A stretch of DNA of 8,953 nt, from IMG/VR virus record IMGVR_UViG_2778261177_000008. One strand, 5' to 3'. A program made the translations under genes and the position numbers. Below the pieces are notes generated by a model that saw only the letters and a program-made list of their open reading frames with translations, was not told the origin of the DNA and made no database searches. The stretch comes from a virus (taxonomy: Duplodnaviria > Heunggongvirae > Uroviricota > Caudoviricetes). This document shows, one piece after another, positions 965-4,007 of this stretch (positions within the stretch are counted from its first letter, which is position 1; each line of letters starts with the position of its first letter).

Positions 965-1741
965 TTACTTGATAAATCCTGCCGCCTTTCCCCGCCTGTA
1001 TTCCTCCATCAGCCACTGCGCCGGTGTTATTCCCCCAAGGGTGGCGGCGTTAGGCATGCACCCGAAACTTCGCCATGGTGGATGGTAAACGTCTCTCCCT
1101 GTGTCCGGAGGTGTACTCATGGGTTCTGGCTTTGCCTGTATGCTGATCACCGGATCGGGTATCTGCTGTCCGGAAGCCACCTTTTTCGCCCAATCATCGA
1201 GCAGCCTGCGAGCGTGTTTCTCAACCTCAATCTCGCTAAGCTGGCGCTGATACATTGCACGGCGGGTATCACATACGACCCAGTACATAACCGGATGTCG
1301 CCACGGGAATATTTCGGGACCACCAGGATATAAACTTTTTTCCTTGCTGTACCGGTGAAACTCCGCCATCACATCGTCAATGGTGACGCCAAGAACCATC
1401 TTGCTGTCTTTACACCACTTGATGAATTGCCCTGGCGACGGCCAGAACGGAGATTCACTGGCGCGGGCGTGGCGCATACCAGCGTTAACCTGTTCCATTG
1501 TAGTGATCCCATTCTCCAGAAACGCAAGCATCCATTGCTTACGGAATTCATTAAGTTTGTTCTGCTCCCTTATGGTCGAAACGCTTGCAGGAAATGCAGC
1601 CTGTAACTGGACAAATAGTTCATTGAAAATTCTAGCAACCTGCTCCTTTTTGCCATTGCTGTCACGCCGCTCTTCATGCACAGCAACACCATGCTCACGT
1701 AAGCGATCGTACTCATTGAGAAGTTCTGGAGTTGATTTCAT
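965..1741 (-). CDS. Replication protein P-like (DnaB helicase loader)
   Basis: 258-aa ORF. The segment FPASVSTIREQNKLNEFRKQWMLAFLENGITTMEQVNAGMRHARASESPFWPSPGQFIKWC closely parallels lambda P as I recall it (FPAS...QW.LAF.ENGITTMEQVNAGMR...PF.PSPGQF..WC). SD AAGGGG 6 nt upstream of ATG (1741-1739). Start overlaps the upstream O-like gene by 29 nt. Confidence 0.85.
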   Translation of the reverse strand: MKSTPELLNEYDRLREHGVAVHEERRDSNGKKEQVARIFNELFVQLQAAFPASVSTIREQNKLNEFRKQWMLAFLENGITTMEQVNAGMRHARASESPFWPSPGQFIKWCKDSKMVLGVTIDDVMAEFHRYSKEKSLYPGGPEIFPWRHPVMYWVVCDTRRAMYQRQLSEIEVEKHARRLLDDWAKKVASGQQIPDPVISIQAKPEPMSTPPDTGRDVYHPPWRSFGCMPNAATLGGITPAQWLMEEYRRGKAAGFIK

Positions 1742-2543
1742 CCCACACCCCTTCTATCCAGTCAGTGTTATTCCAGTCAAGCTCATCGCTTTTCCCGGCA
1801 TTTTTTGATTTTCCCCTGATATGATTTACGTGCCTGGCGAATTTTTGTTCCCACTGAACCTGCGTGAACACTTTGCCCTCAGCCATCCAGTAATCCCGGA
1901 ATGCAGCAAGTTCAGCAGGTGTAAATTCCGGTTCCGGCAGGGCCGTTCCCCACAGCGCAGCACGCCGCCGAAAATCTGGCGACGGTAGCCAGCCATCTGT
2001 CATCGGAAATTTCCCGATGGGTTCACTCAGGCCATCCAGAAATTCAGGTTCTGCCACCTGCAACGGCGTACTGTTCGCTTCACTGGTCGGAGCACCCTCG
2101 CGCACGTGCGCTATGTGTGGGGTTTTATATATATCCTCCTCTTCCTCTTCCTCTGGTAACTCCTTTTGTAACGCTGTTGGCGTTACTTTTTGCGTTACTC
2201 GTTTTCGATGCTCTGCCACTCTTCTATTCGTAAGTGCACGTTTTTTCGATGATTCTCCATTGTGTCGCTCAAAGTTTGGAAGAATTAGTTTGCCGTCATG
2301 ATAAGCAAGCCATCCGACGCTAATGAGGGCGTCAGCAAATCCTGTAATAAAAGCGAGTCTATCAAGTACTCCTTTTGTAACGCTGCCAGCGTTACCGTCT
2401 ATTGTTTGCTGGTCAGCCCATGCCCATATACGAACCAGCTTTCCAAGAACAGCATCTGGATCAATACCCAGAATTTCTGCTATCTGAAAAATTTCAGGTT
2501 TATCAGGAGTGATAACTTCAACCTTAATCCAGCTGCTTGCCAT
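1713..2543 (-). CDS. Replication initiator / replisome organizer (O-equivalent) with DnaT-like C-terminal domain
   Basis: ORF track gives 1713..2561 with a GTG start; I prefer ATG at 2543-2541 (MASSWIKV...), which has SD GAGGGG about 6 nt upstream. The C-terminal GKFPMTDGWLPSPDFRRRAALWGTALPEPEFTPAELAAFRDYWMAEGKVFTQVQWEQKFARHV closely matches E. coli DnaT as I recall it ([26 protein letters not shown]...[20 protein letters not shown]). An acidic EEEEEED linker separates the two halves. Sits immediately upstream of the P-like gene, as O does in lambda. Confidence 0.8.
   Translation of the reverse strand: MASSWIKVEVITPDKPEIFQIAEILGIDPDAVLGKLVRIWAWADQQTIDGNAGSVTKGVLDRLAFITGFADALISVGWLAYHDGKLILPNFERHNGESSKKRALTNRRVAEHRKRVTQKVTPTALQKELPEEEEEEDIYKTPHIAHVREGAPTSEANSTPLQVAEPEFLDGLSEPIGKFPMTDGWLPSPDFRRRAALWGTALPEPEFTPAELAAFRDYWMAEGKVFTQVQWEQKFARHVNHIRGKSKNAGKSDELDWNNTDWIEGVWDEINSRTSQ
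2160..2405. repeat. Iteron-like repeats (putative replication origin) inside the O-equivalent gene
   Basis: Two perfect 19-bp palindromes GTAACGC-N5-GCGTTAC at 2168-2186 and 2387-2405, plus an extra GCGTTAC at 2192-2198. Both palindromes sit in a shared 17-bp direct repeat ctccttttgtaacgctg (2160-2176 and 2379-2395). A short AT-rich tract TTTTATATATAT lies at 2123-2134. Confidence 0.6.
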
Positions 2544-2736
2544 AGGTTTCCCCTCTTGCACTCTTTAGTGCACAAGCAAATTCATTACGATGGCGGTTGG
2601 CGCTATTCATTGCACATTCAACACATGTTCCGTTCAGAACATACCTTTCAGAGAGATGGCCGTGACGGCACCGCTTTCCTGTGAAATAGCGATTTAACCC
2701 GGCTTTTGCGGCCTCCATTCTGGTTACTATCTTCAA
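2524..2736 (-). CDS. Small putative zinc-binding protein in the cII-equivalent position
   Basis: 64-70 aa ORF; start is either TTG at 2736-2734 (SD AAGGGG about 8 nt upstream) or ATG at 2718-2716. Cys/His cluster CRHGHLSERYVLNGTCVEC suggests a zinc ribbon. Overlaps the start of the O-like gene by 20 nt. No confident family match. Confidence 0.45.
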   Translation of the reverse strand: MKIVTRMEAAKAGLNRYFTGKRCRHGHLSERYVLNGTCVECAMNSANRHRNEFACALKSARGETYGKQLD

Positions 2737-2814
2737 TTTTTCCGCCCCTTTTTGTTATTGATATTGGCTATTTTGCACAATTGGAAAATTTGATCAACCA
2801 GATTTGGTTTTTTA

Positions 2815-2829
2815 TTACCTTTGAGGTAC
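2815..2829. promoter_or_regulatory. Isolated operator-like palindrome TTACCtttgaGGTAC (one arm imperfect)
   Basis: Member of the TTACC-N5-GGTAA family. On the minus strand it is followed after 17 nt by a -35-like TTGATC, upstream of the zinc-binding ORF. Confidence 0.45.
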
Positions 2830-2840
2830 GAATAGATATG

Positions 2841-2864
2841 AAAAGACCGCCGGATGGCGGTCTA
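2841..2864 (-). terminator. Putative intrinsic terminator downstream of the cro-like gene (tR1-like position)
   Basis: Inverted repeat AGACCGCC (2845-2852), loop GGAT, GGCGGTCT (2857-2864). On the minus-strand transcript the hairpin is followed by UUUU then CAUAUC. Lies about 20 nt past the cro-like stop codon (2885-2887). Confidence 0.55.
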
Positions 2865-2884
2865 CAGAGGGTTGTGGCTGGATA

Positions 2885-3115
2885 TCATGAGTAGAAGAAG
2901 TATGCCAGTTCTGCTTTTGAGCGCAGCCATTGTCTTGTTTTACAGGCTTTAAAAAGCCCATTCATCAATACCTTACCTGGCATTTTGCGCTTACCTGTTA
3001 AGTGAGTCTGGATATAGTGACTCGTCGTTCCGGCTTCCTGTGCGAAGGCTTCACGCTCATCCGGAGTAAGTGCAAGCCAGTGCTTTTTGAAATCAAAATG
3101 TCCGTTATCGCTCAT
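2885..3115 (-). CDS. Cro-like small HTH DNA-binding regulator
   Basis: 76-aa ORF with a helix-turn-helix-like segment (REAFAQEAGTTSHYIQTHLTGKRK). Transcribed divergently from the repressor gene across an operator-rich intergenic region and followed by a terminator, as for lambda cro. Confidence 0.6.
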   Translation of the reverse strand: MSDNGHFDFKKHWLALTPDEREAFAQEAGTTSHYIQTHLTGKRKMPGKVLMNGLFKACKTRQWLRSKAELAYFFYS

Positions 3116-3140
3116 AGCTATTGCCTGATATTTATTTCAG

Positions 3141-3214
3141 ATAATAAATATTCACCCATAAGGTAACAAAAATCAAGGATAGTTACCTATGAGGTGCATT
3201 TACCTGATGGGTAA
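3141..3214. promoter_or_regulatory. Divergent promoter/operator region (OR-like) between the cro-like and repressor genes
   Basis: Three operator-like palindromes: 3152-3166 (TCACCcataaGGTAA), 3183-3197 (TTACCtatgaGGTGC) and 3200-3214 (TTACCtgatgGGTAA, perfect). Centres are spaced 31 and 17 bp apart. Leftward promoter candidates on the minus strand: -35 TTGATT (plus 3171-3176) or TTGTTA (plus 3164-3169), with -10 TATTAT (plus 3141-3146). The site at 3152-3166 overlaps the -35/spacer. Confidence 0.6.
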
Positions 3215-3269
3215 TATTGCTTTAAATTGAATCATCTACTGATTCATATATGAGGCGATTTTCCAGAAA

Positions 3270-3854
3270 ATGAAAAGTATCCAGGACGTCCGCAGGCAAA
3301 ATCTCAACGACTTGATCGACCGTGAATTCAATGGTGTTCAGACGCGGATGGCAGAAAAACTTGGAACTCAGGCAAATCTGGTAAACCGCTGGGCTCTTGG
3401 CAAGAAGGTTATCGGCGACCAGGTTGCGCGAAAAATTGAAGCTGCCGCCAATAAACCCCGTAACTGGCTTGATATCGATCGCTCGCTTTCTCAGGAAGGT
3501 TTTCAGCCTGTCGGCCCAAGCGACATTGGCCAGCTGGCGGCTCACAACCTGGAACGCTGGATGAGCGAAAGCCGCGACCTTTCAACACAGGGAAAACTTC
3601 ACCGCGCATCCGGCGTAGCCCAGGTGACAATCAGCCGCCTGTTAAACAATGAGGTCAGCGTTTCCATTTCCACCCTGGAGAATGTTGCATCCGCATTCGG
3701 GCGTCACGGCTATGAATTACTGATTCACCCGCACGACCCTGCGACCATCAACTATGATCGCTCGCGCTACGCATTGTTACCCGAAACCGAGAAAGCAAAG
3801 ATCGAAAGTTACATTGAATTTGTCATCAACCAGAACGAAAAAAGCAAACAATAA
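3270..3854 (+). CDS. Putative prophage repressor (CI-equivalent) with two tandem HTH_XRE-type domains
   Basis: 194-aa ORF with two HTH-like segments (GVQTRMAEKLGTQANLVNRWALGKK and LHRASGVAQVTISRLLNNEVS). No recognisable LexA-like S24 peptidase domain. Sits between the operator cluster and a strong terminator, divergent from the cro-like gene. No good SD: GAGG is 14 nt upstream of the ATG. Confidence 0.7.
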   Translation: MKSIQDVRRQNLNDLIDREFNGVQTRMAEKLGTQANLVNRWALGKKVIGDQVARKIEAAANKPRNWLDIDRSLSQEGFQPVGPSDIGQLAAHNLERWMSESRDLSTQGKLHRASGVAQVTISRLLNNEVSVSISTLENVASAFGRHGYELLIHPHDPATINYDRSRYALLPETEKAKIESYIEFVINQNEKSKQ

Positions 3855-3874
3855 AACTATAGTTTTCAGCAAGT

Positions 3875-3898
3875 AAGCCGCCTCATGGCGGCTTTTTT
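3875..3898 (+). terminator. Rho-independent terminator after the repressor gene
   Basis: GC-rich 8-bp stem AAGCCGCC (3875-3882), loop TCAT, GGCGGCTT (3887-3894), running into TTTTTT (3893-3898). Lies 20 nt downstream of the repressor stop TAA (3852-3854). Confidence 0.75.
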
Positions 3899-3911
3899 AT
3901 TGCCAGATAGA

Positions 3912-3988
3912 TTACCTTACGGGTAATTTTTTTAACTCATATCTATTGACACCAAACCAAATAAGCATAATTATTACCTCAACGGTAA
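3912..3988 (+). promoter_or_regulatory. pL-like early-left promoter with two flanking operators
   Basis: Perfect palindromes at 3912-3926 (TTACCttacgGGTAA) and 3974-3988 (TTACCtcaacGGTAA), with consensus -35 TTGACA at 3946-3951. The -10 is AT-rich (AATTAT at 3969-3974 with a 17-nt spacer) and overlaps the second operator. A GGTAA half-site lies at 3996-4000. Spacing is operator, 19 nt, -35, 22 nt, operator. Confidence 0.65.
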
Positions 3989-4007
3989 CAAACCGAGGTA
4001 ACAAGTT

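Follow-up and report, generated by a model that had tools for sequence, protein, structure and literature searches.

The DNA examined here, a stretch of 8,953 nucleotides from the IMG/VR virus record IMGVR_UViG_2778261177_000008 (called the window throughout), is the early region of an Escherichia coli prophage of the epsilon15/phiV10 type (Uetakevirus). Its positions 2400–3300 are 99–99.6% identical to phages vB_EcoP_ZX5, HEMP4 and TL-2011b and were matched in 541 of 5,426 complete E. coli genomes. On the minus strand, a cro-like gene and a terminator are followed by a small gene, a replication initiator with a DnaT domain, a lambda-P-like loader and a DUF1064 gene (Table 1). The small gene, the subject of this work, encodes a homolog of epsilon15 gp40 and phiV10 p42. 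An initial annotation, made from the letters of the window, had described its product as a zinc-ribbon-like protein standing where lambdoid phages carry cII, and had proposed that it could be a regulator of lysis–lysogeny or of replication of a different type.

A small gene directly after cro

Two starts are possible for the open reading frame (ORF), a TTG at 2736 giving 70 residues and an ATG at 2718 giving 64 residues, the latter being the version found in some databases. All relatives open with M-[KE]-I-[IV]-T-R at the same position, using ATG, GTG or TTG, and R6 is conserved; the 70-residue TTG form is therefore the correct one. Selection on the frame was assessed over codons 2–47 of 11 homologs compared pairwise, and in all 55 pairs the nonsynonymous differences per site (pN, 0.06–0.38) were far below the synonymous ones (pS, 0.65–1.0, which is saturated); between phiV10 and a Klebsiella phage, for instance, pN is 0.059 and pS 0.785. 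Because this excess is found in every comparison, the small ORF can be regarded as a translated gene under strong purifying selection and not as a chance frame.

The same data bear on the idea that the gene is the decaying remnant of a homing endonuclease, or a functionless leader ORF that aids the translation of the next gene. The gene is indeed short, lacks a nuclease domain and abuts its downstream neighbor. However, its synonymous sites are saturated while pN stays low, the ligand and basic residues are invariant, and the gene is present in every locus examined. Given such strong purifying selection, this explanation is very improbable.

The location of the gene is equally constant. It lies directly after cro and the terminator in 11 loci from 10 genera, with the same size and genomic position in epsilon15, phiV10, SPN9TCW and TL-2011b. 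To control for ascertainment, further loci were retrieved through cro alone (37 phage records matched), and the module gene was found at the same spot in all five additional Uetakevirus-type loci inspected, which brings the total to 16 of 16. It is absent from that spot in a distant Psychrobacter phage, whose cro match is only partial. The placement of the gene between a cro-like terminator and a replication gene, as originally described, is thus confirmed together with the terminator itself, which the phiV10 annotation places at the same spot after cro.

Table 1. Features of the early region discussed in the text, by position in the window
Feature	Position	Strand	Details
Small zinc-module gene	2524..2736	-	70 residues, TTG start, stop TAA 2526-2524; homolog of epsilon15 gp40 and phiV10 p42; PHROG 1081
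Codons of the putative zinc site	2614..2670	-	C23 2670-2668, H27 2658-2656, C38 2625-2623, C41 2616-2614
Overlap of small gene and initiator, 20 nt	2524..2543	-	initiator ATG 2543-2541; small-ORF TAA 2526-2524
Shine-Dalgarno-like AGGGGCGG	2742..2749	-	read from sequence; AGGGG 2749-2745, 8 nt upstream of TTG
Promoter-like element of the small gene	2770..2797	-	-35 TTGATC 2797-2792, 16-nt spacer, -10 CAAAAT 2775-2770
Rep-type operator, palindrome TTACCTTTGAGGTAC	2815..2829		centre about 25 bp upstream of the -35 hexamer
Intrinsic terminator after the cro-like gene	2838..2863	-	AGACCGCC-ATCC-GGCGGTCT then TTTTC; hairpin 2863-2844
cro-like gene	2885..3115	-	76 residues; phrog_35; divergent from the repressor gene
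Repressor/cro operator cluster	3152..3214		3152-3166, 3183-3197 (looser copy), 3200-3214; same palindrome family
Prophage repressor	3270..3854	+	194 residues, two helix-turn-helix (HTH) domains in one chain
Replication initiator	1713..2543	-	phrog_2509; C-terminal DnaT DNA-binding domain
Lambda-P-like loader	965-1741	-
DUF1064 gene	500-847	-

A probable zinc module shared with phage nucleases

The protein carries the cluster C-R-H-G-H...C-V-E-C (C23, H25, H27, C38 and C41). The initial annotation had read this as C-x-H-x-H...C-x2-C; the cluster is present, but the second of its five residues drops out as a ligand. Among 517 modules, C23, H27, C38 and C41 are each 99–100% conserved, while position 25 is variable (His 31%, N 22%, R 22%), which points to C-x3-H-x10-C-x2-C (CHCC) as the probable zinc-binding set, with H25 excluded. 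G26 and R31 are conserved in 95% of the modules each. An AlphaFold2 (AF2) model with a mean predicted local distance difference test (pLDDT) of 90.9 contains a helix (6–11), a β-hairpin (16–22 and 28–32) and a long helix (39–67). C23 and H27 flank the turn of the hairpin and the long helix has C38 and C41 at its N-terminus, a ligand geometry deduced from the secondary structure. Treble-clef zinc fingers, in which a single zinc is held by two residues of a β-hairpin knuckle and two of the opening turn of a helix, were considered as a candidate class for the module. The small protein consists of a single CHCC module, composed of a short helix, a β-hairpin with a C-x3-H knuckle and a C-x2-C motif at the start of the long helix, with no catalytic domain. 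It has a pI of 9.7 and a net charge of +7, and all 102 stand-alone members of up to 80 residues are likewise basic (median pI 9.65, net charge +2 to +12).

Regarding its family, the protein matches PHROG 1081 over its full length (residues 1–61 on profile positions 1–61 of 67, E 2.2e-27) and does not differ from that family in any respect; SPN9TCW_043 and phiV10 p42 align with it throughout. PHROG 1081 has no assigned function, and membership therefore explains nothing. The small protein has no Pfam family at E<=1, in line with the earlier view that it is not of the CII type, and no match in NCBIfam, PADLOC or PDB; 63 family members searched against Pfam at E<=10 gave no recurrent family. A word-indexed profile search returned 545 homologs, all hypothetical and mostly of 60–80 residues, and an exhaustive profile search returned 16,461 cluster representatives at E<=1e-3 (3,600 at E<=1e-10), the clusters being drawn at 50% identity. 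A profile search of genome contigs with one family alignment found only 4 loci. The module is therefore very abundant, although it is absent from Pfam, NCBIfam and PDB. Our literature searches found no study of epsilon15 gp40, phiV10 p42 or the zinc module, and the study of phage ZX5 covered the repressor, antirepressor and integrase, the small gene being outside its scope (PMC9782041).

The best 149 matches of the exhaustive search each contain 2–4 tandem modules, with a median of 121 residues beyond the last copy, and the only recurrent recognised partner domains among the top matches are HNH (34), HNH_5 (33), Endonuclease_7 (15) and HNH_4 (14). In these relatives the HNH motifs stand C-terminal to the modules. 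In lytic phages, the module forms the N-terminus of isolated phrog_1035 'endonuclease VII' genes of 180–250 residues, arranged in the manner of free-standing homing endonucleases and found, among others, in a Jedunavirus, a Jerseyvirus, a Seuratvirus and several Vibrio phages. In three PHROG 1035 nucleases (Klebsiella KpV52 gp08, Salmonella VSt10 gp07 and Vibrio F89 g1 protein 0066), the first ~60 residues match PHROG 1081 with E values of 1e-7 to 1e-19 and share with the small protein the CHCC pattern and the N-terminal helix. Unlike it, they possess a C-terminal nuclease domain and are isolated between structural or metabolic genes of lytic phages. A fold search of BFVD gave the same picture, its only significant matches being viral proteins that contain this module, whether alone or joined to nucleases of the Endonuclease VII, HNH and GIY-YIG types. 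The module of the small protein and the tandem modules at the N-termini of HNH and Endonuclease VII nucleases are homologous. The small protein itself has no HNH or Endonuclease_7 Pfam match and hence is not placed among the His-Me finger nucleases. Two-module proteins without a nuclease (116–117 residues) were also observed among small early genes beside primase or primase-helicase genes, in metagenomic contigs from unrelated elements.

Several known systems resemble this arrangement in part. NUMOD-type modules are also small, often tandem, and joined to HNH or GIY-YIG nucleases, and the zinc module shares with them the fusion, in single or tandem copies, to homing-type nucleases; by sequence, the 63 members gave no match to NUMOD1, NUMOD3 or NUMOD4 except one chance-level NUMOD3 hit (E 0.068). 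By analogy, the zinc module would behave as a nuclease-associated modular DNA-binding domain that also stands alone. Stand-alone derivatives acting as DNA-binding proteins are known from AP2, and I-TevI acts as an autorepressor. The P2 Ogr and P4 Delta proteins are similar in being phage-encoded, of ~70 residues and, presumably, zinc-dependent, but differ in genomic setting and in cysteine pattern, which in Ogr is C-x2-C-x22-C-x4-C; neither the small protein nor the 63 members match Pfam Ogr_Delta. F-CphI of cyanophage S-PM2 is a free-standing homing endonuclease with a C-terminal Endo VII catalytic motif (PMC6083498). In our own reading of its translation, a Cys-rich stretch of the C-x2-C...C-x2-C type precedes that motif; F-CphI was rejected as a characterised relative, its N-terminal C4 module being a different one (hhalign probability 0.8%).

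Modules at the N-terminus of homing-type enzymes normally provide the binding to the DNA target. As the nuclease-fused homologs carry the module in that position, the stand-alone protein probably binds DNA without cutting it, a view to which both its basic charge and the fusion partners point. We therefore consider, with moderate confidence, that the small protein is a nuclease-less DNA-binding CHCC zinc module, made early after derepression. Alternatively, the zinc module could be an adaptor that contacts a host or phage protein, such as RNA polymerase or a replisome component, instead of DNA. Small phage zinc proteins that bind RNA polymerase do exist, for example those of the DksA/TraR type and Ogr, and a conserved host target would fit the free reassortment of the gene relative to its phage neighbors described below. 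But every recognised fusion partner is a DNA nuclease and the family is uniformly basic, and we regard this reading as unlikely.

If the module reads DNA sequence, it would add a further modular recognition unit of nucleases to the NUMOD, AP2 and zinc-finger modules, with a possible use in engineering. In the epsilon15-like phages (SPC32H, SPN1S, phiV10, TL-2011b, ZX5), the small gene is the one invariant early gene without an assigned role, and a function for it would fill a gap in the path from derepression to replication and late expression. The module is an uncharacterised type within a known architectural class, and many records already list the protein as hypothetical. Given how abundant the module is, and how constant its place is in one group of phages, it is a reasonable object for experiments; as the protein is on record already and no surprising mechanism was demonstrated, it is a modest lead and not a discovery.

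Junction with the initiator and mosaicism of the locus

The initial annotation had also linked the small gene by translation to the replication gene, through an overlap of 20 nt. The overlap exists, with the initiator starting at the ATG supported by homologs (the GTG at 2561 given by the ORF finder has no such support), but it is not conserved. Across the 11 loci, the junction between the small gene and the next gene varies from -20 to +42 nt, and the next gene is the initiator in 7 of them. In epsilon15 and three prophages of enterobacteria, a DNA methyltransferase gene (phrog_363) separates the small gene from the initiator, and in Klebsiella phage BUCT711 a metallophosphoesterase gene does so. 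Because relatives place these genes after the small gene, the overlap with the initiator appears to be incidental. The cargo genes are inserted with 4-nt overlaps, and the junction appears to be an insertion hotspot.

The initiators of the epsilon15-like group share a DnaT DNA-binding domain at the C-terminus, and their N-termini belong to no fewer than four unrelated types (MASSWIKVEV, MSRHATDWAW, MARIRTIKPEFW and MAGDWIKMR). Downstream of the small gene, four such unrelated types (A–D) are found, and they are uncorrelated with the similarity of the small proteins: the window allele, which precedes type A, shares 69–72% identity with alleles that precede types C and D and only 51% with the other allele that precedes type A. 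These observations weigh on the proposal that the small protein is a replication accessory, translationally coupled to the initiator and binding either it or the origin. The real overlap in the window, the short junctions and the initiator as the most frequent next gene would fit such a role, as would the primase genes adjoining two-module relatives in other elements; the unrelated initiator types, which the small protein does not track, and the genes that intervene in epsilon15, the three prophages and BUCT711 go against it, and make it an improbable one.

On the other side of the gene, the immunity region and the unit formed by the small gene plus the replication genes are separate mosaic blocks. 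Near-identity of the window to phiV10-type phages (97.6–99.2%) extends from 3300 to 2792 and ends at the -35 hexamer; the cro genes of the window and phiV10 are 100% identical, while the small proteins are only 48% identical. Since DNA identity to phiV10 stops exactly at 2792, the promoter core and the small gene constitute a mosaic unit of their own. A partner specific to the origin or to immunity was rejected, as the small protein co-varies with neither cro nor the initiator type; the alleles reassort freely, which argues against a partner with origin, initiator or immunity specificity. With such reassortment, the target could be a host component, a site conserved in the phages or one within the cassette of the gene itself.

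The behavior of the alleles as an independent mosaic unit, promoter included, is also reminiscent of free-standing homing endonuclease cassettes, and the module has homologs in the recognition modules of phage nucleases of the free-standing kind. It might accordingly serve as a decoy or competition factor that occupies the targets of related homing nucleases, protecting the phage, or that hinders competing phages. The gene, however, is fixed at one site in every phage of the group examined instead of occurring sporadically, and no cognate intact nuclease was seen at that site, so that a decoy function seems quite unlikely.

A tRNA has been reported in ZX5 at complement 14482-14558 (PMC9782041). 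This position maps to ~2478-2554 (+) of the window, at the junction of the small gene and the initiator, where ARAGORN and Rfam found nothing and the fold was indistinguishable from that of shuffled sequences (z -0.07); the call is probably false.

Operators, promoter and possible roles

The region upstream of the small gene contains the operator-like site at 2815–2829 that had been pointed out in the initial annotation. The window holds 7 TTACC-N5-GGTAA sites (<=1 mismatch), where chance would give 0.17, and this is one of them; all 7 are intergenic (851–865, 913–927, 2815–2829, 3912–3926 and 3974–3988, plus two in the cluster at 3152–3214, which also has a looser third copy at 3183–3197). 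In the epsilon15 RefSeq record, ATTACC-N5-GGTAAT sites are marked as bound by the repressor, and over its full length the window repressor is homologous to PDB 5D50 'Repressor' (E 3.5e-42). On these two grounds 2815–2829 is a Rep-type operator, with the window repressor as its expected binder. The site was also considered as the small protein's own and rejected, because it belongs to the repressor/cro palindrome family annotated in epsilon15. In Providencia, Pectobacterium and Pantoea, where Rep and Cro are divergent, the site is altered as well, and the small protein remains conserved.

Between the operator and the gene, the promoter-like element agrees with the consensus at 8 of 12 positions, under the threshold of the scanner, and is conserved in 15 phages and prophages. 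Across 15 phages, the block CCAAAT(A/C)TGGTTGATC followed by a T-run is the best-conserved non-coding stretch. The small gene would be the first cistron of a unit that starts beyond the cro terminator. With a conserved promoter of its own and a Rep-type operator just upstream, a layout that is itself conserved, this unit may be expected to yield the small protein soon after infection or derepression, before the products of the replication genes, and this arrangement suggests that its role is early and either regulatory or accessory. The interpretation in the initial annotation is thus partly supported: a regulator of lysis–lysogeny or of replication is a plausible candidate role, though none of the findings showed regulation.

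A bolder version of the DNA-binding reading starts from the CCAWATRTGG(TT) block, which abuts the -35 hexamer of the small gene and, in phiV10 and epsilon15, is found again at late, lysis and nin-like promoters. According to it, the recognition domain of a homing endonuclease was domesticated to serve, in every epsilon15-like phage, as a core early transcription factor, which would bind this block and so time the early-to-late switch or bias the choice toward lysogeny. We consider this rather unlikely.

The same doubtful standing is given to the view of the small protein as an analogue of CII, which would activate the establishment promoters for repressor and integrase and so determine how often lysogeny occurs. 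The likeness lies in gene position: the small gene follows cro and a terminator and precedes the replication genes, as cII follows cro and tR1, and none of the temperate epsilon15-type early regions examined lacks it. The small protein is, besides, a probable DNA binder, and a promoter-like site on the plus strand at 2861–2888 (TCTACA, 16 nt, TATCAT), which overlaps both the terminator and the stop codon of cro, points toward the repressor gene, antisense to cro, and is possibly an establishment-type promoter. Mosaicism independent of cro would be tolerable if the target sites lay inside the gene's own cassette, as PRE does in lambda. CII, however, is an HTH protein without zinc; the small protein has no homology to it and no Phage_CII Pfam match, and its AF2 model shows a hairpin and one long helix with no HTH. 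No CII-type target repeats were identified, and no repeated activator-type motif was found at the repressor or integrase genes. Furthermore, stand-alone and fused homologs are common in strictly lytic phages, and the phages of this group already encode PerC-like, AlpA-like and gp49-like candidate regulators.

Some features of the wider regulatory DNA were observed alongside. Three units of the window share a layout of terminator, operator, 25–27 bp and -35 hexamer (838–964 on the minus strand, 2737–2884 on the minus strand and 3855–4007 on the plus strand), with -35 sequences TTGATT (893–888), TTGATC (2797–2792) and TTGACA (3946–3951), respectively. The DUF1064 and leftward promoters have a second operator over the start site, and the small-gene promoter has the upstream operator only. 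A second motif, ATATGTGGTT / CCAWATRTGG, has 8 matches in phiV10 against 2.48 expected, a number reached by 0 of 100 shuffles, and stands 24–57 bp downstream of Rep operators at the late, tail-fibre, lysis, DUF1064 and small-gene promoters. It is found at 2792–2807 and 871–880 in the window, at 3309, 20922, 24736–24749, 33132 and 35117 in phiV10, and at the corresponding promoters of epsilon15 (record L034, positions 2989, 24752 and 35954); the small zinc protein, the gp49-like regulator and a host factor are candidate binders. Finally, the whole genome of phiV10 contains 14 TTACC-N5-GGTAA sites against 0.73 expected, and Rep-type operators, some of which the epsilon15 record marks as repressor sites, lie in the promoter regions of most units, including those of the terminase, late operon, tail fibre, lysis and integrase, so that one repressor appears to gate nearly every transcription unit directly.
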